Source: Escherichia coli
GTDB taxonomy: Bacteria > Pseudomonadota > Gammaproteobacteria > Enterobacterales > Enterobacteriaceae
Strand: one strand, 5' to 3'
Length of the DNA stretch: 64,000 nt
NCBI RefSeq assembly: GCF_030013595.1
Contig: NZ_CP122768.1
Below the pieces are notes generated by a model. The model was not told the DNA's origin and searched no databases. It saw only the letters and a program-made list of their open reading frames with translations. This document shows, piece by piece, positions 1 to 31,369 of the stretch (positions within the stretch are counted from its first letter, which is position 1; each line of letters starts with the position of its first letter). The position numbers were made by a program, and so were the translations under genes.

Positions 1-1632
1 TACCAGTACGAACGCAGGACGAATATTCAGATGACGCTCCCCCTCTTTCTGAACGCGCATCAACTGGCGGGCTTTATCCAGCGATGCCACGTCCATTGCA
101 GCGCTCTCCAGTACGTTTGCATGTTTCGCTTTATCGAACAGACTTACATTATCTGTGGAGATTTTCGGGTTAGACGTCAGAATGGCATAAACCAGATCGG
201 CAATAGTGGATTTCGCCGCACGGCCCAGTTTCATCGGGACATCGGTCAGCATATTCAGATCATCATTGATAATGGCCTGACGGGTGATACTGAACAGCTC
301 GCCATAGGTCGCCAGTGCAATAGTGGCCTGTTTATCTCCGGTGGTGACGTATTTATATTCCGCCCCTTCACGCACCTGACGCAGAGCACTGAAGCCCCCC
401 ATACCCACACGATGGGCAATTTTAAAATCAGACAACTGACCTTTCCGCGTCCACTGTTCATAGGTTTCAGGGGCATCTTCCCAGCCCTGCAGAATGGCTT
501 TGTTCGCAACATCCAGCAGAATATTACCGAAGTCAGACGTACTGTGTGTGAACGCCGCACCGACCATCTGCATCGGGTTATAACTGGAAACCCCAATACC
601 CCGTTCAGTCAGTGACATACGGGCATATTCACGCAGGGTCATCCCGTTGTAGACATTATCACGTTCGGTTTTTTCAAATCCGGCACGCGCCATCAGCGCC
701 TGGCGGATCCCGTCCCCCACAAAATTACCGTTTCCGGCATAAATATGAGCCGGGGTATTTTTATTGGATGGCGTGGACTCGCGCCCCATCTCGTTCAACA
801 GCTTTTCGCGGGCCTGTTCCAGCGAACATTCAGGATCGGCAAGACACTGAGCCTGCAGCGTCTGATAACGCCCGCCAAACATGGCAAACAGATCATTAAT
901 ACCGTTTACACGCGCTTTTTGCTCTGCCAGTACCTGCGCACGGATACTGTTTTCATCCACCACGGGTGCTGCTGCCTGCACTGGCGTCCGGGAGGCTGCA
1001 GGTTCATCATCCTGTACGCGTGGAGCACTGTTGCGTGGCGGAGTAATCATGTTTCGAATGGATTCCGGCATCTTTTTAAATTCCTCTGTACGTTTTGACT
1101 GAATACATGCCATTGCCTTAACGGCTGGCGTCACCTGATCAGCAAATCCCTGTGCCAGACATTCGGCACCGGACATCCAGGTCTCATCCGCCAGCATGGC
1201 AGCAATTTCATCGGTGGTTTTCCCGGTTTTCTGTGCATAAGCGGGTAACAGAACCGCCTCAACCTTATCGAGCAGGTCGGCATAGGTGCGCATGTCCTCC
1301 GCATCACCGCCCGTAAAGCCAAATGGTTTATGAATCATCATGAAGGTGTTTTCCGGCATAATGACCGGGTTTCCCACCATCGCAATGACCGACGCCATTG
1401 ACGCCGCCACACCGTCGACATAAACGGTAATGGACGCACCATGTGTTTTCAGCGCATTAAAAATGGCGATGCCTTCAAAGACATCGCCACCCGGTGAATT
1501 AATATGGAGATTAATGTGGGTGATATCGCCCAGTGCATTCAGATCACTGATAAACTGCTTCGCTGTAACACCCCAGAAACCAATCTCGTCATAAATATAA
1601 ATATCCGCGTCACTCTGGTGACCAGCCTGCAT
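1..1632 (-). CDS. Prohead protease (ClpP/S49-like) with C-terminal HK97-like capsid-type domain; 3' end beyond window
   Basis: Manual translation of the minus strand from ATG at 1632: MQAGHQSDADIYIYDEIGFWGVTA...INSPGGDVFEGIAIFNALK (ClpP/S49 SPGG motif). Frame stays open to position 1 (...NIRPAFVLV). Not in the ORF track because no stop lies in the window. Confidence 0.8.
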   Translation of the reverse strand, partial: MQAGHQSDADIYIYDEIGFWGVTAKQFISDLNALGDITHINLHINSPGGDVFEGIAIFNALKTHGASITVYVDGVAASMASVIAMVGNPVIMPENTFMMIHKPFGFTGGDAEDMRTYADLLDKVEAVLLPAYAQKTGKTTDEIAAMLADETWMSGAECLAQGFADQVTPAVKAMACIQSKRTEEFKKMPESIRNMITPPRNSAPRVQDDEPAASRTPVQAAAPVVDENSIRAQVLAEQKARVNGINDLFAMFGGRYQTLQAQCLADPECSLEQAREKLLNEMGRESTPSNKNTPAHIYAGNGNFVGDGIRQALMARAGFEKTERDNVYNGMTLREYARMSLTERGIGVSSYNPMQMVGAAFTHSTSDFGNILLDVANKAILQGWEDAPETYEQWTRKGQLSDFKIAHRVGMGGFSALRQVREGAEYKYVTTGDKQATIALATYGELFSITRQAIINDDLNMLTDVPMKLGRAAKSTIADLVYAILTSNPKISTDNVSLFDKAKHANVLESAAMDVASLDKARQLMRVQKEGERHLNIRPAFVLV

Positions 1633-1645
1633 CCTGAACCAGGAA

Positions 1646-3226
1646 TTAATCTTCGGACTGGTCGTCGGTGTGCTGCGGCTCCTGTCGTTTCGTTGCGGCA
1701 CTACTGCCTCCTTTATCACTGGCCGGATCGGTATCAAATACCAGATCCAGCTTGCGGTTTTCATCAATTTCGGCCTTGCGCCGACGTTTGACATCATCCG
1801 GATTACGACCACCAGCACGTACCCAGTCTGATTCTGTCGCCGCTCCACCACGAATCTGGATTTTCCAGGCCTCAGCCTCCTTAACAGGGTCAATCCACGG
1901 CATCACTGGTCCGGAATACACCGCGGTATACAGTGAAGAACGGTCAAGATCGCGGGGTAGCCTGATAACACCGGATGCCACAGCCTGTTTCAGCCATGCA
2001 CGATACATCGGGCGGGTGACGGCACCAATAAACCAGTCCTGCAGGATCAGGTAGCCATCAGTGGATTCAACCAGCTCCTGACGCTGGGCGCTGTAAGTGC
2101 CGTTATAGTTGCGCGCTGTACTGGAAAAACTCAGACGACTGCCCGCCGCCACGGCACGCAACTGACCATTACGAAAAGTTTCAAGGTTAGGATTGGGGCG
2201 ATCCGACTTCACCATTCCGATTTCTTCGCCGGGTTTCAGATCATCGTAAATAATGCCTGGCTGAATGGTAAGCTCGCGTTCCTTATCCTTGCTGCCATTA
2301 CCATCCGGTTCATAGCTCTGCCCGTCGCCTTTGCGGATGTACATCCCCAGAGCAGCGGCGATCCTTGCTGCAGTCAGCTCATAATCTTCATAATCTTTCA
2401 GGGCACTGAGGCGGATCAGCACACCGGACAACAAAGACGTCCCGCGCATCTGGTGCAGACGGCGAACAAATTTAAGATGCAGCATTCGCTCTGCATCCAC
2501 TTCTTTGGTTTCCATCTGCCGTCCGGATACGGGACGGCTTTTATACACCAGATATTTTTCGGGACGCCCCCAGTCATCAACAAACACGCCCTGATTCAGC
2601 CTGTTGCTCTCATCACTGGTCATGGGAATAAAGTCCGGCTCGAGCGCCTCCAGCCAGAAATGAACACCGGCAGAAGGCGTCAGGCTGTTTATGCGCCCGG
2701 AAACCATCTGGGCAAACACCTCACCATCGCGCAGCCAGGTACGCAGCATCAGACGTTCCAGCATCGGACGGGTAAACTGCCCGGTGACTTCCGGGCTGAC
2801 AGACCATTCACTCCATCGGGTGCGAATCTCCGCTGCCAGATCACGGGCAATGGCCCCATTGCGTAATACCGGATGTGGCTCGACAATAATCCCGTTTTTC
2901 CCCACCACCCGTTCTTCCAGCTTGTCAAATACACCAATAACCAGATCGTGGTTGTTATCAAGGTAACGGGCCTGCTCACGTAACGACACGGCCCCGTACT
3001 GGCTTAGCTGGTCGGCAGTTCGGTTCTCCCGTCGGGCTTTGTGTGTCCGCGTCGTTTTTACGGCTTCATAAGCCTGGATCACCGCACGGGAACGCAGCCT
3101 TGCCGCTTTCCATCCAGGTGAAAAAACGCCAATCACATCATCAAGAATTGCCATCAGAACCTCGCCAGCCGGTACCCGGGATGCCCCCGTCGTCGTGTAA
3201 TCAGAGCCGCAAGGCGGCGCTCCCAC
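1646..3226 (-). CDS. Phage portal protein (lambda gpB-like)
   Basis: 526-aa ORF between terminase and protease genes; size and position as lambda B. Confidence 0.8.
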   Translation of the reverse strand: MGAPPCGSDYTTTGASRVPAGEVLMAILDDVIGVFSPGWKAARLRSRAVIQAYEAVKTTRTHKARRENRTADQLSQYGAVSLREQARYLDNNHDLVIGVFDKLEERVVGKNGIIVEPHPVLRNGAIARDLAAEIRTRWSEWSVSPEVTGQFTRPMLERLMLRTWLRDGEVFAQMVSGRINSLTPSAGVHFWLEALEPDFIPMTSDESNRLNQGVFVDDWGRPEKYLVYKSRPVSGRQMETKEVDAERMLHLKFVRRLHQMRGTSLLSGVLIRLSALKDYEDYELTAARIAAALGMYIRKGDGQSYEPDGNGSKDKERELTIQPGIIYDDLKPGEEIGMVKSDRPNPNLETFRNGQLRAVAAGSRLSFSSTARNYNGTYSAQRQELVESTDGYLILQDWFIGAVTRPMYRAWLKQAVASGVIRLPRDLDRSSLYTAVYSGPVMPWIDPVKEAEAWKIQIRGGAATESDWVRAGGRNPDDVKRRRKAEIDENRKLDLVFDTDPASDKGGSSAATKRQEPQHTDDQSED

Positions 3227-3366
3227 TCCTGCCGTCCCTGCCGGATCTCAGATAAGTTTTCCATGGTCATCTGCTGACCATTAAAGGTGACGGATTTTCC
3301 GTCCAGCACCGCCATTTCAGCTTCCGTATAACGCTGAATCATGGCTTCGATATCATTCTGGTTCAT
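3154..3366 (-). CDS. Head-tail joining protein (lambda gpW-like)
   Basis: About 70 aa ending ...RRRGHPGYRLARF, resembling the gpW C-terminus; start overlaps the terminase stop (ATGA). Confidence 0.6.
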   Translation of the reverse strand: MNQNDIEAMIQRYTEAEMAVLDGKSVTFNGQQMTMENLSEIRQGRQEWERRLAALITRRRGHPGYRLARF

Positions 3367-5465
3367 AACCATCCTCCGGAAGTCAGCCAGGGGTTAACAT
3401 CGTCAGTTACTGTTTTCTTCCGTTTTTGTTTTTTAACAGGCGTGGATACCGGTTCCGGTGAGGATGACGGTTCGGTACTGTCCTGGACACACTCCAGCCA
3501 GGTTTCCCGGCTCGCCCACTCCGGTGCATCCGGCCAGCGGATCTTTTCGTATCCATGCAGAATGACCAGAGCCTCGGCATACACCATCAGGTCAAAAGCT
3601 TCGTTGGCACCGCGACCAGGCTTACTCCATTTCCCGTCACTGCTCCGCTCTTCATACGTCAGTTCGTCGTAAAACCAGCTCCCCAGCCAGTCAGGGAAAT
3701 GCACATAGCCGGGACCTGGCGAGTCACGCCATAACGCGTTATTCACCCGGTCTTTCAGTGCATCCGTCTGAAGAAGCCAGAGCGGCACATCACCTGCGGC
3801 CTGCGCCCGTCGGCCCGTTCGTCCGGTGTTATCAGGGAATGTACGAGTGATCAGTTTTGCGCGCCGGATGCTGTCGCCCTTAAACAGGTAAATACGTTTA
3901 CCAAGGCCATCACGACGGCAACGACGCCAGAATTTATAGGCATTATCAGTGACCCCGTCTTCACCGCCGGAGTCCACCGCCATTGCCATCAGTCGCATTT
4001 GTTGAGAAGGATCGGAGGCCAGCGGCCAGCTTTTATGAAAAACATCCGTCAGCAGGACATCCCAGTCTTCCGGATAGCTGGCCGGATCAATTCGCTGGCT
4101 CTCCCCGTCGCTGTCACCGCGCAATGACTGCGTGATGTTGTAACGATCAATAATCCAGCGTTCGCCACGGCTGCCATAGCCCGTTACCTGAACCACAAAA
4201 CGGCGATGACGTCCCGCCTGCACATCCACTGTCGCCACAAGGAAATTAACGCCATCCGGCACACTGCGGGAAGGAACTGGCTCTGCCCGCTGCTCAAGCA
4301 GTTCACTTTTTCGTTGCTCCATGCTGGCGCGGGGAAGATAAGGTAATCCCCAGTCGGTATTGATAACCGTCTTGAGTGTTTCTTCACTTCCGGTTGTCTC
4401 GTATTCCTGTTCTGCAGTAAGCAGTTTGTAAACGAGTTGCGAGAGTGTCTGGTAAGCAGCTGCCGGACCCTCCATCCAGAATGACGCAATACGTGAGCGT
4501 CGGGGATCACCATAACGACTGCCATCCGCATTGATGGATTCACCATCCCGCAACCAGACCCCACGTCCGTTCAGCTCACGTTTTTGTTCAGGCATAATCC
4601 GTCCTGAACAGGAAGGGCACTGAATATAAGCCGCCTCACTTGCCAGCACGGGATCGGCAATATCACGGAAACCAGCAACCACATCGCCGCAGGGCTGAAA
4701 ATACTCACCACAGTGTGGACAGGGCCAGTACCAGCGACGGCGATCACCACGGTTATAGAGCGACAGGATCCCCGTGGTTGGTGGAGCCTCATGCGGTGAA
4801 GTCCGTCGCCATTTCACATCCTTCACATCCCTGCCGGGGGAACTCTCCACCAGCGTCATACCGCTGGACATAAATGTGGTGGTACGTTTTGAGGCAAGAG
4901 AGAAAGCATCCCCCTCGCCATCAATATCTTCCGGAAAACGGTCATAATCCGTCAGCGCGACGCATTTATAATCTGATGAGGACATGATATTGACTGACGG
5001 CCAGCCGATTTTCAGGTAGTTACCAGCAAGGAATGTTCTGTCATAAACGTTGTTGTCATTTTTGTTCGGACTCAGGCGACTGACCACTTCCGGGCTGACG
5101 CGAAACGTTCTGGCAAGTCGTTTTTTGGAGTGTTCGCGGGCTTTTTCCTCCGTCATCTGAATGATCAGCATATCAGCAGGATCGCAAATCACGTTGTAAA
5201 TCACCCAGCCGTCAATCAGGCCGATAGTCTTGCCAGTTCGTGCCGGGCCAACAAATATCACTGCGTCGTATTCACGCGAGGCCAGGCAGTTCATCGGCTC
5301 AATAACATACGGTGCCACCAGCGGATCCCACGGGACTGAGTTCCCTGCCCCCATGGGCACCCGCATATACTGAGCAACGGCATCAGCAACCCGCATTCGT
5401 CTCGGTGCGCGAAGGATATAACCTGAATCGGTTCGTGCTGCCTTTGCGGTTTCCTGATTCAGCAT
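3363..5465 (-). CDS. Terminase large subunit (GpA-like)
   Basis: 700-aa ORF with ATPase P-loop VGPARTGKT, directly downstream of the small subunit. Confidence 0.9.
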   Translation of the reverse strand: MLNQETAKAARTDSGYILRAPRRMRVADAVAQYMRVPMGAGNSVPWDPLVAPYVIEPMNCLASREYDAVIFVGPARTGKTIGLIDGWVIYNVICDPADMLIIQMTEEKAREHSKKRLARTFRVSPEVVSRLSPNKNDNNVYDRTFLAGNYLKIGWPSVNIMSSSDYKCVALTDYDRFPEDIDGEGDAFSLASKRTTTFMSSGMTLVESSPGRDVKDVKWRRTSPHEAPPTTGILSLYNRGDRRRWYWPCPHCGEYFQPCGDVVAGFRDIADPVLASEAAYIQCPSCSGRIMPEQKRELNGRGVWLRDGESINADGSRYGDPRRSRIASFWMEGPAAAYQTLSQLVYKLLTAEQEYETTGSEETLKTVINTDWGLPYLPRASMEQRKSELLEQRAEPVPSRSVPDGVNFLVATVDVQAGRHRRFVVQVTGYGSRGERWIIDRYNITQSLRGDSDGESQRIDPASYPEDWDVLLTDVFHKSWPLASDPSQQMRLMAMAVDSGGEDGVTDNAYKFWRRCRRDGLGKRIYLFKGDSIRRAKLITRTFPDNTGRTGRRAQAAGDVPLWLLQTDALKDRVNNALWRDSPGPGYVHFPDWLGSWFYDELTYEERSSDGKWSKPGRGANEAFDLMVYAEALVILHGYEKIRWPDAPEWASRETWLECVQDSTEPSSSPEPVSTPVKKQKRKKTVTDDVNPWLTSGGWL

Positions 5466-5995
5466 TACTCCTCCTGCTGTAATTCCTCCTCATCATCCGC
5501 ACCTGCTTCAGTCACCCGCAGGGCTATCTGATCGCGCAGATCATCAATAATGGACTGAACACGGCTCACAGCGGCAGGCTGCAGACCGCAGTCACGTTCA
5601 AGAATATCCGGTAATGTCTCCAGCACCTGCACGACCGCTTTTACCCAGATGGCAAACTCCCGTCTGACATCACTGGCCGGAATGAGTTGTGCCGTTTCCT
5701 GTTCGAACTTAAGACGCTCACGTTCAGACTGATACCAGGCTTTGCGCTCATGCGCGTCCATTTCGCCTTCTGCAACCGGCGGAGGTAATGCCAGAAATGC
5801 CGACACAATATCAACCACCCGATAAAGCTTGAGGTTGCTTTCATGCCCCCCTGCAACGGGTAGATTTTGCAGCCTTGCCGCAGCAGTCTGGCGATGTACA
5901 CCTGACAGTGCCGCCAGTTGACTGATATTCAGCGTCAGATTTTTTAACTCTCGATCCATACCCGCTCCAGAATGTTTTAAACATGCATCTTGCAA
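5465..5995 (-). CDS. Terminase small subunit (Nu1-like, N-terminal HTH)
   Basis: 176-aa ORF; LNISQLAALSGVHRQTAAARL HTH and acidic C-terminus; true start may be the internal Met (MDRELKN). Confidence 0.65.
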   Translation of the reverse strand: MQDACLKHSGAGMDRELKNLTLNISQLAALSGVHRQTAAARLQNLPVAGGHESNLKLYRVVDIVSAFLALPPPVAEGEMDAHERKAWYQSERERLKFEQETAQLIPASDVRREFAIWVKAVVQVLETLPDILERDCGLQPAAVSRVQSIIDDLRDQIALRVTEAGADDEEELQQEE

Positions 5996-6373: not shown

Positions 6374-6967
6374 TTGCAAAAGACTTTTCATATGCAGCGT
6401 CGAGAAATAAAGAAAATTACTTATTTAATCACTTTGATTTTAACTACTCTTTTGTTTGTTTATTTTTTAAGAACACCCACCACAATCAATATGAAACAGG
6501 CGCATAAAATAAATCAACAACACCAGACAATTTTCCTTATCCGTCACGGTGAACGATGTGACAGAAGCAAAAATGCATGTCTCTCAAGCAATAAAGGAAT
6601 TACCGTCAATGGTGCCATTAAAGCTCATGATTATGGAAAAATATTTAGCAATACTTTCCCGTCATTCAGCCTTTACTCCACGGATACCATACGGACAATG
6701 CAGACAGCCTGTTTTTTCTCTGGAGGAAAAGCAGCCTCCCGGATACCGTTGGCTGCAACATGCGGACTTGATGCTGCAAAGGACATACTCAAATTGTCAT
6801 CCGATAATAAAACTACCGTTATATTCACCCATAATCATTGCCTGACACAAATAGCAAAAAAAATGAAATGGTGGAAGTTAAAGCCAGAATATCTTGAAAC
6901 ACTGGTTCTTCATATCGAAAACAATCGTCTCATTCTTGACGGAAAACTGACTCACGATAAAGCGTAA
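6374..6967 (+). CDS. Secreted histidine phosphatase, Ais/PmrG-like (moron at the lambda bor position)
   Basis: Hydrophobic N-terminus, then LIRHGERCDRSKNACLSSNKGITVNG ... VIFTHNHCLTQIAK, matching the RHGE catalytic motif and overall pattern of Ais. AT-rich, opposite strand to flanking late genes. Start ambiguous (6374, 6392 or 6491). Confidence 0.7.
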   Translation: MQKTFHMQRREIKKITYLITLILTTLLFVYFLRTPTTINMKQAHKINQQHQTIFLIRHGERCDRSKNACLSSNKGITVNGAIKAHDYGKIFSNTFPSFSLYSTDTIRTMQTACFFSGGKAASRIPLAATCGLDAAKDILKLSSDNKTTVIFTHNHCLTQIAKKMKWWKLKPEYLETLVLHIENNRLILDGKLTHDKA

Positions 6968-7038: not shown

Positions 7039-7422
7039 TTATCGCCTCAACTGAAAATGCGGTCCGTCTTTCAGGCTGGTCCACTCCCCGCCCCATTCGA
7101 TGGCAGTTCCCAGCTCTGCGGCAGCCTGCTTAAATGCCTGCGCGATTTTCTCGTACAGAGGCCAGTCCCATGACACCTGGCTGCCAACCCAGGCCACAAC
7201 ATCCACCGCATCACCGGTCAGGTGGCGGCTGTTCATGGTCTGGCTCTTGCCTTCTGCAACCAGCTGTTTCTGGCGTTCTTTCGTGCGCAGGCCTTCCGTA
7301 ATACCGAAATCAACCTCCGTCAGCTCCAGCGCACGGCGAACGACAGCAACCAGCTGTGGTTTAACGCCCTCCAGATTTTTCTCGCTCCGACGACTGAATC
7401 TGAATTTACCCGACATATTCAC
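7039..7422 (-). CDS. Endolysin, peptidase M15 family (L-alanyl-D-glutamate peptidase type)
   Basis: 127 aa with SRHLTGDAVD ... DGPHFQL metal-binding signature; last gene of the lysis cassette. Confidence 0.8.
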   Translation of the reverse strand: MNMSGKFRFSRRSEKNLEGVKPQLVAVVRRALELTEVDFGITEGLRTKERQKQLVAEGKSQTMNSRHLTGDAVDVVAWVGSQVSWDWPLYEKIAQAFKQAAAELGTAIEWGGEWTSLKDGPHFQLRR

Positions 7423-7694
7423 CTCAACAATGGAAAGATTTTTGTGACGTTCCCGCGTGCGCGTATCACCAGCACGCAGAACAGCAGATTAAAAAACACT
7501 TCCAGCCAGCCCGTTGCTAACGGGCGACCACACAGATAGCTGAGGGGCGCAAAGGCATACAGCAGCATCAGCAGCCAGGCCAGCCATGACATCAGCGGTT
7601 TGTGCGTGGCATCTTTTCGGCGATAAAAAAAGAACGTCAGCACGATAACCGTGCATAACGCCACATTCAGCAATCCGGGAAGGTTACTTAACAT
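7419..7694 (-). CDS. Small membrane protein of lysis cassette (putative holin/antiholin partner)
   Basis: 91 aa, two or three hydrophobic helices; overlaps both neighbours. Confidence 0.5.
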   Translation of the reverse strand: MLSNLPGLLNVALCTVIVLTFFFYRRKDATHKPLMSWLAWLLMLLYAFAPLSYLCGRPLATGWLEVFFNLLFCVLVIRARGNVTKIFPLLR

Positions 7695-8076
7695 TGCCGC
7701 CTCCTCCGCCCCTCAGGCGGGAGAACAGGCCGGACACCAGTGATGCGATATCCTGCTGGTGGATGAATGACAGAATCTTCACTGACACCACCGATACCAG
7801 CACCGCACACAGCGCATCTGCCGATGTACCGTCATACCCTGTTTTTGATGTAATCCAGGCTGACAGTACACGTGCTCCCAGCACGCCGACGATAAACGAC
7901 ACCAGAAAATGCGCCGCCACACGCCAGGCGGAAATCTTCTGCGGCACAGTTGCCACAAACAAAGCCCCCGCGAACGCACCAAACACAATCCCGAAATCCG
8001 TTCCGGTGAACAGCCCGAATACCGTCGCCCCTCCGAGCGCAGCCGCCGTGCCGGAACCGGATAAGGGTTCAGACAT
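7684..8076 (-). CDS. Putative holin
   Basis: 130 aa, Gly/Ala-rich TM helices and charged C-terminus; first gene of the lysis cassette. Confidence 0.6.
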   Translation of the reverse strand: MSEPLSGSGTAAALGGATVFGLFTGTDFGIVFGAFAGALFVATVPQKISAWRVAAHFLVSFIVGVLGARVLSAWITSKTGYDGTSADALCAVLVSVVSVKILSFIHQQDIASLVSGLFSRLRGGGGGNVK

Positions 8077-8534
8077 ACTTTTTTCTCCTGTAAATAAAAA
8101 AGGGCCACCAGCGGCCCGTAAAAAAACAACACCCCGTCAAAGGCACCCGCAGATACCTTTTGTGTGGTGTATTCAGATTTGACATACGCTGAGCAGGGCG
8201 AAGAAATGAAAAAGGCCCGCAGTAGCGAGCCATGAAGAAACTGAATAAAAAAAACCGCCTGGTACGGCGGTTAAGATGAATTTCCAGGTTTTGCTTAATA
8301 CGTGATTAATCTCAACGTTTTTTATAGATGTTAACAACATCGGAATGATGCATCACCGGCCCTGTCAGGAAATACAAAATCTCCACCGATAATGCACCAT
8401 TACGCTGTTGTAAAAAGACAGCACTGGACTGTAACCGATATCACGTATTACAGAACAGGATGTGGATAAAGATTCAGGAAAACATCCCACATATAATATG
8501 TCAGTGCCCAAAACAACTTGGTATCGTCTACTGC

Positions 8535-8609
<75 letters not shown>

Positions 8610-9026
8610 ATACTATGCGGTCTTCAGTAATCACACGAATTACCGTGAAAGCCAGCACTGGTCTTTCCGACGGTAGTAACACCCCTGTGAACACCAAAAT
8701 AACCGTCTTCCAGACCGACGAGAATACTAACGACATTTTTTCAGATATCAAAAATATATTTTGTTTTTAGTTTTTAATATATGTATGCATCTGTATCAGA
8801 AATATACAATTTATATCATTACTAAATTAAAAACATTTCTCTGACGTCTGATTAAAACGTTCCTGTTCCAGTTCCGCGCCAATCACACATGGTCATTGCG
8901 TTTTACCAGTCCATCGCCACTATCAGGCTGACCAGGGGACGCCCCACCCGAACTGCTGAGAATGCCAGGCACACAAAGAATAATGCCCGCCAAAGCGTTC
9001 CTGCATACAATGACTGCAAAATTCAG

Positions 9027-9878
9027 TTATTCTTGAGCGGAGCCAGAACTCATCTCACTGAATGCAGCCATCCTGTAACCTTCCGGGGTGACCCCAAAAT
9101 AACGCCTGAATACACTGATAAAATAAGATGTATTATTATAGCCACACTGCACAGCGATTCTGTTGATGGCACAGCTATATTGATGCAACAGCATTGCTGC
9201 CATTCTCATTCTCTCCGTAAGCAACAACTCACTGAAACATGTGCCTTCTTCTTTCAGTCTTTTTTTTAACAAACTTTCACTCATACATAACCGTGATGAC
9301 ACATCTCGCAGAGTCCAGTTTGCTGCAATGTCTGTATGAAACAACGCACCAAGCCTGCCGCTGATAGTACTGATACACGCGGTCATAAACGACGAAAACA
9401 TTTTATCTGATGAAAAAAACGCCAGACACGAAAAGGAAAGCATTTCCGCTAAATTGTCCGTATGAATCTTTTCCTCATAAAGATAATCAATCAGGATGCC
9501 CATCAATTCTGGCCTGGGAAAACTCATGCAAAGATATCGTGGCATTTTCCGGACTAAAACAACATCCTGTTTTACCCCACTACGCAACAGGTAACGGCTA
9601 ATTGTCGATTCACTGAGACTTATACGCCGAAAACATTCAGAAAAGGGCAATAACGGTCCAGCCCCTCCCCTGACAAGAAGTGCACTACCACTTTCCAGAG
9701 AGAGTACTTTTCCTTCGAAGAGCACAACAAACGGGGAATGAACAAAAATAACAGAACAGGCCTCATTCATATCAATATCCCTGACATTACTGGTCGCAAG
9801 ATAAGTATATATCACTTTACAAAAATGCAAGCCGTGAGCCCCGAATTCACGACCACCAGCGTGTTTACTGTACTGCAC
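9027..9878 (-). CDS. AraC-family transcriptional regulator (AppY/Rns-like), moron
   Basis: C-terminal AraC HTH (LRDVSSRLCMSESLLKKRLKEEG ... VQCGYNNTSYFISVFRRYFGVTP); AT-rich; start uncertain (internal Met MNEACSVIFV possible). Confidence 0.8.
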   Translation of the reverse strand: MQYSKHAGGREFGAHGLHFCKVIYTYLATSNVRDIDMNEACSVIFVHSPFVVLFEGKVLSLESGSALLVRGGAGPLLPFSECFRRISLSESTISRYLLRSGVKQDVVLVRKMPRYLCMSFPRPELMGILIDYLYEEKIHTDNLAEMLSFSCLAFFSSDKMFSSFMTACISTISGRLGALFHTDIAANWTLRDVSSRLCMSESLLKKRLKEEGTCFSELLLTERMRMAAMLLHQYSCAINRIAVQCGYNNTSYFISVFRRYFGVTPEGYRMAAFSEMSSGSAQE

Positions 9879-10274
9879 CAGGTTTACAGGTACAAAAAAC
9901 CGCTCGACGGCGGGTTTAAGCTGTGTGGCGAAGTAACCACTCTTAACAGATTAAGATAAAATTTGCGGACCGCGGTAATTTTTTTTGCTAAATTAAAGCC
10001 ATATAAAAAAAGATCCATAAGAAATTATTAGTATACTAAGGTTTAACATGGCTACTATTGCGCAATCAAAGAAACAAAAAAACTTAAAATTGGTTTTTAC
10101 ACCAGCAGTTCTGGGACTATCCGCAGCCATTCAGTTGCTAAGCAAGCAATTGAAAATCTGTATAATACTTGCGTAACCGTTACGAATAATCATTTTGATA
10201 CCATCTATAGAAATAAAAAGTTAAAAATAGCTTTTATAAATAAAGATACAAAAGCTAAATATTTCTTCGGCTAC

Positions 10275-30008: not shown

Positions 30009-30686
30009 TTAATAGGGATGCAACACATTACTTGCTTCGCAATGCCGCATACATAACAGAATATCTGCGGCCTCCAACAACCCTGCATCAGAACTTACGC
30101 CCAGTTTCGACATCACATTAAATTTATGTGCACGGATCGTTTTGATATTGCGTTTAAGCTGCTCGGCAATTTGTGTCATTGAGTAGCCACGCGACATAAA
30201 GCGCAATATTTCTCTCTCCGTCGGGCTTAGCGTTCGGCTTTGATTAATGTACCACTGATTGTTCAGTCGGTCGGTCGCCTGACGTACACCATTTAATGAC
30301 AAAAAGAGTTCCTGATGAAAAATCTCCAGCGTTGACGCTTTACTTAATACACCGTCCAACGGTGATGGCGACAATGAACCAATCAGCCGAGCTTCAATAT
30401 CATCATCCGCAATAACTAAACGCCGGGTACGCGGAAACTTAATCGCCAGTTCAGTCAGGCAAGATAATCCCTCTCTGCGCTCACTTCTCATGGCAGAAAA
30501 AGAAAAAATGACCGCCGCAAACGAGATCCGCGACATGGCATCCTGAAATGACTCCTGACTGGTATAGGTATGGAGCTTATAAGGGTTACCCGCAAACTTT
30601 CTGAATAAACTCTCAATACCGATACTACTCATGACGCATTTTTCTATGAGTGCGACATTTCTCTTCTTAATTCGGCTGTGTTCCAT
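30009..30686 (-). CDS. bglJ: LuxR-family transcriptional regulator BglJ
   Basis: 225 aa; C-terminal LuxR HTH; K-12 synteny. Confidence 0.9.
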
Positions 30687-31369
30687 TCTGCGGCATCTCC
30701 ATAAACAGAAGGCAAGTTAAGTTCTCTTGCACCCTGCGCGCTATTTATCCATGCATACATTTCAGCGTTGCTGTGAATTGCCAGTCGACGCATCGCACTG
30801 TTTTTTTGGGCGCTGATAGTTTTATTACTTTTCTTAAGCAATGAAGCTATCTGGTTGATGCCCCATCCTTTACCTAATAGCCGCAGTACCTTGCGCTCTG
30901 AAAGAGTGAGAATGACGGAGCGATAGCTAAAATCATGAGTTTCAGTCATTGCCGGAGAGGTCAGCATGGCGCTGATACGCTCTGCGTGCGTATTGCCGGA
31001 ACGTACGGTCTTGACCAGATTCTCAATGGGTTCAACATCAGACAATAACGTTGCCGTAGGGCACATAAGCAGTTCTACTGCCTGGGAATACCAGGAGCGT
31101 GACACCATGAAAACCCAGTGAATTTCCCGATATTGTGAGATTAAAGAATAATAATGTTCACAAACAGAACGTGGATCTTCACTTTCACCGGCTAAATCAG
31201 CAATGACTAATCCGGAACGACGTAATTGTAATAAGGTAAGGTCCTCCGCAGAGGCGCTGGATATTATTTCATATTCAGGGAAGTGAGTCCTCATGACCTC
31301 TTTTAACCCTGCTTGCATAACAGGTATTTTACTGATAACAATTCCATTTTTGCAGCATCCTGGCAACAT
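30644..31369 (-). CDS. yjjQ: LuxR-family transcriptional regulator YjjQ
   Basis: 241 aa; overlaps bglJ as in K-12. Confidence 0.9.

Follow-up and report, generated by a model that had tools for sequence, protein, structure and literature searches.

Among the AraC/XylS-type regulators of Escherichia coli, YdeO, GadW, and GadX regulate AR2 genes. AppY is a direct activator of gadE, gadY, nhaR, hya, and app, and its motif at gadE and gadY overlaps the −35 region (PMC10057817). PatE activates hdeA, gadE, and gadBC; PatE and PsrB both act at hdeA (−132 to −45) and gadE, the two promoters that PsrB binds, and PsrA and PsrB raise GadE and YhiF, thereby repressing the locus of enterocyte effacement (PMC10877973). 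The hijacking of host acid resistance by prophage-borne AraC-like regulators (AppY, PatE, PsrA, and PsrB) is already well described. Here, we describe a gene of the same class located on the minus strand, at positions 9027 to 9770, of a 64,000-nucleotide (nt) stretch of the E. coli contig NZ_CP122768.1, referred to below as the window. This gene is found in 64 of 5,426 complete E. coli genomes (1.2%), on the chromosome every time, and its product represents an uncharacterized and unnamed subfamily of a known regulator class. A first-pass annotation, made from the letters of the window, had described it as an AT-rich moron encoding a Rns/AppY-like AraC-family regulator between the Q gene and the lysis genes of a phage.

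Sequence relatives of the regulator

Pfam searches detect HTH_18 (E value, 5e-15) and two copies of HTH_AraC (1e-9 and 0.003) within residues 183 to 269 of the 283-residue maximal open reading frame (ORF). The C-terminal ~100 residues contain the two helix-turn-helix motifs typical of AraC/XylS proteins, as seen both in Pfam and in the superposition on GadX (PDB entry 3mkl). The ORF encodes a genuine AraC/XylS-type protein and is not a chance reading frame; this family assignment, already made in the first-pass annotation, is shared by the structure model and by searches of Pfam, NCBIfam, and the PDB.

The top NCBIfam model is YdeO, which is matched from end to end (residues 2 to 230 against model positions 2 to 228 of 253) with 144 bits; the matches to GadX, HilD, and other models are restricted to the C-terminal half. 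In BLASTP comparisons with reference proteins drawn from strains K-12, Sakai, and EDL933, full-length alignments are obtained with PatE (39% identity), the OI-57 regulator of EDL933 (38%), GadW (36%), YdeO (35%), and AppY (31%), and an alignment with GadX (39%) covers only the C-terminal 141 residues. Since full-length identity among the reference members of this clade is itself only 28 to 37%, the window protein is their peer and an ortholog of no named member. A neighbor-joining tree, computed without bootstrap, puts it on its own long branch, grouped with PatE and the regulators of OI-57 and phage phiSTEC1575. In PHROGs, it belongs to phrog_1450, annotated as “unknown function” (E value, 8e-58; residues 4 to 234 against profile positions 11 to 248 of 254), a family that also includes the OI-57 protein (4e-99). 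With the YdeO/GadW/AppY/PatE/Psr clade, the protein shares the M..CSV start and an end-to-end homology that takes in the N-terminal domain. An exhaustive HMMER scan of 1.84 billion representative sequences yielded only 9 clusters with E values of 1e-30 or better; in the ten clusters that were looked up, every named sequence came from Escherichia or Salmonella and carried a generic name. The closest unnamed relatives are 43 to 44% identical to the window protein. Sequence comparisons therefore place it in a small Escherichia/Salmonella clade that comprises chromosomal YdeO and GadW together with prophage-borne AppY, PatE, and the OI-57 regulator.

PatE (ECs_0287/z0321), encoded in Sp1/OI-8 of O157:H7 strains, is likewise prophage-borne, has the same length of 247 residues, the same two domains, and the M..CSV start, and is 39% identical to the window protein over 233 residues. 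However, its gene is found at the prophage end, past the tail fiber genes, and not behind Q, and at this level of identity it is not an ortholog. The OI-57 regulator (WP_000301797.1; prophage CP-933O) is closer in its setting: it occupies the post-Q slot, with a Chi site ~100 nt upstream and with tRNAs followed by cargo and lysis genes downstream, although its 237-residue sequence is only 38% identical and its promoter region is unrelated. Judging by its island and position, this protein is presumably PsrB (z2104). Its gene (L069, positions 30274 to 30987; EDL933 NZ_CP008957.1, positions 1905274 to 1905987) follows a DUF1133 gene and is itself followed by tRNA-Ile and tRNA-Arg, with a PerC/Pch-family gene past the lysis genes; the protein is 92% identical to phiSTEC1575 gp36, which is encoded just upstream of tRNAs and stx2k. 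PsrA was sought in Sakai Sp6 and EDL933 CP-933N, where no homolog was found, so that PsrA was left out of the comparison. YdeO and GadW resemble the window protein over the full length and have recognition helices close to the shared clade consensus, but they are encoded in the chromosomal core or the acid fitness island. AppY, from the K-12 prophage DLP12, is another AraC-type regulator kept in a defective prophage; it differs in its location, at the prophage end beside ompT, and is the most distant of the characterized clade members. The designation “AppY-like” in the first-pass annotation is borne out by the full-length alignment. “Rns-like” holds only loosely, for the overall fold and for residues 87 to 232, the limits of the phmmer alignment (E value, 6e-18); the full-length homology to Rns expected of a member of the Rns/CfaD/AggR group is not seen, and Rns is displaced as the closest relative by the full-length matches to PatE, GadW, and YdeO.

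Domain structure and recognition helices

The AlphaFold (AF2) model, computed from a 36-sequence alignment (pLDDT, 90.4; pTM, 0.81), consists of an N-terminal β-sandwich, a helical linker, and a seven-helix DNA-binding domain. The N-terminal ~135 residues contain the β-sandwich with helices, and the C-terminal ~100 residues form the double helix-turn-helix. PDB sequence searches return, in this order, the GadX DNA-binding domain (E value, 5e-24), Rns and CsvR (~1e-17, residues 87 to 232 only), and ToxT. Foldseek matches the full-length model to CsvR, Rns, and ToxT (E values from 1e-12 to 1e-8; 18 to 22% identity), with a TM score of only ~0.43, and the domain orientation therefore differs; sequence similarity to these proteins is seen in the C-terminal half, and no alignment by sequence is possible for the N-terminal domain. 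For the C-terminal domain, the match is GadX (3mkl), with a root mean square deviation of 1.1 to 1.3 Å and 44% identity. The model thus shows a predicted two-domain protein with a Rns/ToxT-like N-terminal β-sandwich and a C-terminal part that is nearly superimposable on the DNA-binding domain of GadX. Rns, CsvR, and ToxT are plasmid- or island-encoded virulence regulators with a fatty acid pocket, the residues of which include His20 and Arg75 in Rns and Lys31 and Lys230 in ToxT.

In the first recognition helix, MSESLLKKRLK, 10 of 11 positions agree with the clade consensus, MSESLLKKKLK; the second helix, TSYFISVFRRYFG, conforms to the conserved positions of the consensus. Lys169 of the window protein is aligned to Lys170 of AppY, and the K170E substitution in AppY abolishes DNA binding (PMC10057817).

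Start codon of the gene

The list of ORFs in the window contains a minus-strand frame at positions 9027 to 9878, 283 codons from a GTG, and this start was adopted both in the Prokaryotic Genome Annotation Pipeline and in the first-pass annotation. The true start is almost certainly the ATG at position 9770, which leaves a protein of 247 residues (stop codon at 9027 to 9029), and the 36-codon (108-nt) extension at positions 9771 to 9878 is almost certainly not translated and includes the 5′ untranslated region. A Shine-Dalgarno-like AGGGA (positions 9778 to 9782, minus strand) can be read 7 nt before this ATG, and its AGG is kept in all four alleles aligned, whereas the GTG has no Shine-Dalgarno sequence. 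Full-length homologs range from 233 to 258 residues, and those inspected open with M-x-x-x-C-S-V, aligned to the ATG at 9770. The extension is not conserved among the alleles, no start codon is found there in the other alleles, and the ~91%-identical allele, which lacks the GTG, is annotated with 247 residues. Annotated lengths of 283, 308, 315, and 247 residues are found across the alleles, the first three depending on whatever sequence stands upstream. Translation of the extension would also cross a promoter-like core and enter a Chi site (9853 to 9860). On these grounds, the GTG start is rejected, while the gene itself stands as first described.

Predicted target genes

By analogy with its relatives, the window protein is, by a narrow balance of probability, another activator of host gadE/hdeAB-type promoters, that is, of the AR2/GAD acid resistance system. 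This assignment is favored because the similarity of the protein to the clade members equals their similarity to one another and because the recognition helices fit the clade consensus. In a lysogen, the gene would be transcribed from its own promoter-like core, TTGCAT-N15-TATACT, on which its position suggests that it would depend during lysogeny; upon prophage induction, additional read-through by Q-modified polymerase would induce it together with the late operon. The protein would bind AT-rich sites near the −35 regions of host promoters and, as do all characterized clade members, activate the AR2/GAD network at gadE, hdeAB, and gadY-type targets, which in turn would aid the survival of a pig gut host during passage through the stomach. 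Published work on AppY, PatE, PsrA, and PsrB (PMC10057817, PMC10877973) is consistent with the more general statement that such prophage regulators rewire host regulons for acid stress or virulence; for the window protein itself, such rewiring is inferred from this analogy.

Several observations weigh against this assignment. Identity to any characterized regulator does not exceed 39%. The scores for the NCBIfam equivalogs of YdeO (NF007407; 144 bits for a cutoff of 348) and GadX (NF007432; 104 bits, in the C-terminal half only, for a cutoff of 500) fall far short, and the target specificity could differ. The name PsrB is attached to the OI-57 protein by island and position alone. The promoter-like core has a short spacer (15 nt) and a weak −35 element, and it was not called in the consensus promoter scan, because the scanner demands a spacer of 16 to 18 nt. 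Finally, for the nearest outgroup protein (P0014; 44% identical), the neighboring genes are those of a K88-type fimbrial operon and not those of acid resistance.

The last observation would also fit a Rns/CsvR/PerA-type regulator of virulence or adhesin genes, acting on fimbriae (such as F18 or F4) or toxins of porcine enterotoxigenic E. coli (ETEC) or Shiga toxin-producing E. coli, and so would the best full-length fold matches, to CsvR, Rns, and ToxT. The window allele (at least 99.9% identity) points the same way: of the 22 genomes that carry it, 20 come from pigs, among them ETEC strains, a feral pig isolate, and an O139:H1 edema disease strain. The fold match, however, cannot tell the two roles apart, as only one type of full-length PDB structure is available for this branch, and the 18 to 22% identity with Rns and CsvR, with sequence similarity only at residues 87 to 232, compares with 31 to 39% over the full length for PatE, GadW, YdeO, and AppY. 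In addition, the sister allele (~91.6% identity; 87% in protein) is found in 42 genomes, mostly from cattle, sheep meat, buffalo, farm environments, and wildlife. A role in virulence gene control is accordingly regarded as rather unlikely.

If activation of acid resistance is the correct assignment, porcine ETEC and edema disease strains hold an extra mobile input to the network that governs stomach survival and hence the infectious dose, in parallel to PatE and PsrA/PsrB in O157:H7 and to AppY in K-12. No new principle would be involved; the mildly notable features are the host-associated alleles and the junction at which the cassette begins.

A moron cassette in the post-Q slot

The gene is co-oriented with the late genes and is located, as the first-pass annotation had it, between Q and the lysis cassette. 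On one side lies a Q-like antiterminator gene of the small type (11459 to 11836, minus strand; phrog_79; E value, 4e-45), and on the other, two annotated holin genes and an M15 endolysin gene (7039 to 8076, minus strand). In every RefSeq context examined, a Q-like gene on the same strand precedes the gene and holin genes come after it, and a recognizable Q-like gene stands upstream in 42 of 44 IMG/VR prophage loci. Three unrelated Q-like families are represented: phrog_79, phrog_753 (DUF1133), and phrog_127 (YdfT type). The distance from Q to the gene is 231 to 262 nt for phrog_753 and phrog_127 and 815 to 1,871 nt, with other genes intervening, for the small phrog_79 type. Homologs with 38 to 43% identity occupy the same slot, including P0012, which follows a PF03589 antiterminator; gp36 of phiSTEC1575-Stx2k, which has Q on one side and the tRNAs and stx2k on the other; and the CP-933O/OI-57 regulator. 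In phages cdtI and Stx2a_WGPS2, the slot is filled by a small hypothetical gene and a DNA methylase gene, in the latter along with tRNAs and stx2. In Stx phages, transcription of the genes located here stops at tR′ in the lysogen; on induction, Q-modified polymerase reads them from pR′ (PMC7547250). The slot itself is a classical one for morons; the comparisons indicate that this regulator family repeatedly occupies the stx-type position after Q, next to an element that consists of a terminator and a Chi site. Other branches of the family are found outside phages: P0014 by the K88-type fimbrial operon and P0018 and P0021 in other islands. The P0014 locus (L020, positions 108 to 5702 of a metagenome scaffold) is non-phage and includes a second AraC/GyrI-like regulator alongside the divergent K88-type chaperone-usher operon.

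The GC content of the gene is 42.9% (41.9% at third codon positions), compared with 56% for the lysis genes, 52% for the Q and DUF968 genes, and 49% for the whole window. “AT-rich” is therefore correct relative to the flanking phage genes, although the deviation is moderate. The gene is also dispensable, as the backbone terminator-Chi element is present in 2,883 of the 5,426 genomes and the gene in 64, and cdtI and Stx2a_WGPS2 lack it at this slot. Deviant composition, a conserved promoter-like core, and this sporadic presence uphold the designation as a moron and mark the gene as a cassette inserted just downstream of the late-region terminator-Chi element of lambdoid prophages.

Strict retention of the Q-to-lysis position, in 42 of 44 loci and in the 38 to 43% identical homologs, might suggest that the regulator serves the phage cycle and has its targets in the prophage (late or lysis genes, the tRNA, or lysogeny control). 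This is improbable. Most prophages with the same backbone lack the gene, and the same slot bears obvious cargo, stx2 or the DNA methylase gene, in related phages. Because the Q families upstream are unrelated and the neighbors downstream (tRNA, TerB, or holin genes) vary, no constant phage partner or target is apparent. Moreover, the gene is intact in a 23-kb remnant that is incapable of making particles, and the window has a single copy of the conserved core sequence.

The 5′ junction of the cassette

The junction was mapped by aligning four genomic contexts and then the upstream regions of four alleles. Homology across contexts opens at an intrinsic terminator in the tR′ position (9893 to 9916, minus strand; CCGCCGTCGAGCGG followed by T6), the stem of which is shortened in the window by a 1-nt deletion, and continues with a Chi site, GCTGGTGG (9853 to 9860, minus strand), which is invariant in all four alleles and found in 43 of 44 IMG/VR loci. 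The 72-nt element that includes both (9845 to 9916) is the one counted above in 2,883 genomes; it is also present in phages cdtI, mEp460, and Ayreon, which lack the gene, and is annotated as “terminator” in Ayreon. Judged from this distribution, the element belongs to the phage backbone and not to the cassette, the specific sequence of which begins at ~9844. The segment from −95 to −75, at one point considered cassette specific, is in fact the backbone Chi element shared with the gene-free phages. The 72-nt element coincides exactly with the junction at which differing cargo inserts. Such a terminator-Chi junction may promote cassette exchange, and its repeated use would help explain the movement of these regulators between prophages.

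Over the 21 kb of prophage (positions 1 to 21000), Chi sites GCTGGTGG are very dense, with 17 copies, 13 of them on the late transcription strand; the other 43 kb, which is chromosome, has 4, and chance alone predicts 1.8 for the whole window. By its geometry, the site at 9853 to 9860 can be read as facing RecBCD arriving from the cos/lysis side, and it would then promote crossovers toward Q.

Within the cassette, the promoter-like core CTTGCATTTTTGTAAAGTGATATATACTTATCTT (9798 to 9831, minus strand) contains TTGCAT (9830 to 9825), a 15-nt spacer, and TATACT (9809 to 9804), and transcription is predicted to start near 9797. The core is nearly invariant: positions −70 to −25 are 84 to 91% identical among alleles with synonymous divergence (dS) of 0.23 to 0.59. 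Compared with P0005, the allele of the most distant pair (dS, 0.52), identity is 85% at positions −95 to −1 and 91% in the core, for a neutral expectation of ~62%. A regular expression for the core has a match in all 44 IMG/VR loci. This conservation makes it likely that the cassette has its own promoter. A 6/8 near-match to the AppY motif ATGSCWGM, ATGTCAGG, was noticed by eye over the Shine-Dalgarno region and judged meaningless. Inspection of positions 9917 to 10047 for pR′ revealed nothing convincing, and the consensus scan placed no promoter there. StxS accompanies the 144-residue type of Q (PMC7547250); Rfam finds no StxS-like small RNA upstream of the gene, and none is claimed.

Distribution and selection

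The segment from 8800 to 10100 is 100% identical to the chromosomes of porcine strains ETEC4073, ETEC4090, and ETEC1706. The division between a pig allele and a ruminant allele is suggestive, with the proviso that many of the pig genomes belong to one Belgian ETEC series and that clonality was not corrected for. The identical pig allele is found after all three Q-like families, in at least three prophage backbones in pig strains, which shows recent exchange between backbones.

Among four alleles with 76 to 100% protein identity, the ratio of nonsynonymous to synonymous substitution rates (dN/dS) is 0.22 to 0.35 overall, 0.25 to 0.42 in the N-terminal domain, and 0.19 to 0.27 in the C-terminal domain; with low values in both parts, both domains are constrained. 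An intact ORF of 247 to 248 codons is present in 42 of the 44 IMG/VR loci, and the gene is intact in ~62 of the 64 RefSeq genomes, so that ~95% of the copies are intact overall. Disruption in population data, which the first-pass annotation had named as a ground for abandoning its reading, is thus confined to ~2 of 64 RefSeq and 2 of 44 IMG/VR copies. By these measures, dN/dS and the proportion of intact copies, the gene is functional and live.

It might still be cargo that is silent or decaying in the present strain, intact but unexpressed (for example, silenced by H-NS) and without function. Its host prophage is degraded, the gene is AT-richer than its surroundings, and the window allele has only a degenerate form of its 3′ terminator. 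Broken copies also exist: RefSeq strain C3 shows a 2-nt deletion in the alignment, K_EC180, aligned over 743 of 744 nt with a split annotation, is probably broken, and others are L042, L067, and the fragments P0006 to P0011 in draft data. Set against the low dN/dS across alleles, the ~95% of copies that are intact, an upstream core conserved well above the neutral expectation, and the retention of the identical allele in at least three backbones within pig strains, loss of function is doubtful, and we consider a working activator of acid resistance the better explanation.

The pig and ruminant/farm alleles differ most in the N-terminal domain (dN/dS of 0.41 versus 0.20). In a more elaborate version, they would form a host-niche module, with each allele sensing different gut molecules (fatty acids or bile) and tuning acid resistance or colonization accordingly. 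From its seat in the late operon, the regulator would be produced in a burst when the prophage is induced, and RecBCD, acting at the neighboring Chi site, would shuffle the cassette among prophages of different Q types. We regard this combined scheme as a long shot.

Downstream side and prophage surroundings

In another allele (allele B), a strong hairpin with a U-run directly follows the stop codon (folding z score, −3.7). In the window, its counterpart (8974 to 9003, minus strand; z score, −0.96) is a degenerate remnant of the 3′ terminator of the cassette. With this hairpin decayed, transcripts would continue through the co-oriented downstream tRNA-Gly(UCC) gene (8535 to 8609, minus strand) to three intrinsic-terminator-like hairpins at 8102 to 8272 (minus strand), between the tRNA and the holin gene. 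The tRNA-Gly gene follows the AraC gene only in the pig-allele contexts among those examined; the ruminant allele is followed by TerB/DUF3927 or holin genes. Of the glycine codons, GGA and GGG together supply 6 of 14 in the AraC gene; for the first holin gene, the figure is 10 of 19.

Outside the AraC cassette, a two-gene insert on the plus strand (10048 to 11435; 34% GC) separates Q from the terminator; it encodes a DUF6731 protein (phrog_7651) and a small membrane protein of 147 residues (phrog_8552). The same pair is found in phage cdtI, and Stx2a_WGPS2 has a two-gene insert in a similar place. In the window, the DUF6731 gene is frameshifted by the loss of one A from an A8 run (~10076 to 10083). 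Examined as a possible defense system, the pair has no match in PADLOC.

The 23-kb lambdoid remnant occupies prfC|yjjG (window positions ~300 to 23800) and has no head or tail genes. According to the RefSeq annotation of ETEC4073, the gene order there is prfC, a DinI-like gene, a hypothetical gene, and genes for tail fiber assembly, a truncated terminase, DUF1441, and a lipopolysaccharide (LPS) phosphatase (on the opposite strand); then M15 endolysin, holin, holin, tRNA-Gly, the AraC gene, and the DUF6731 and membrane protein genes (on the opposite strand); and, finally, Q, DUF968, KilA-N, RusA, the immunity region, the integrase gene, and yjjG. Comparison of the Q gene with its ETEC4073 counterpart (14670 to 15026; offset of 3,201 nt) leaves the ends 10 to 11 nt apart, which is not a multiple of 3; a small indel may separate the two sequences outside 8800 to 10100, the only stretch compared for identity. 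The LPS core heptose(II)-phosphate phosphatase gene (6392 to 6967, plus strand), between the endolysin gene and the DUF1441 and terminase genes, is a second cargo gene, and its arrangement is kept in PEC422. In the early region, Rfam identifies two tandem RNAs at 17145 to 17333 (minus strand), a C4 antisense RNA (83.6 bits) and isrK (67 bits), near a Rha-family regulator gene, so that this lambdoid remnant contains an antisense immunity module of the P1/P7 type.

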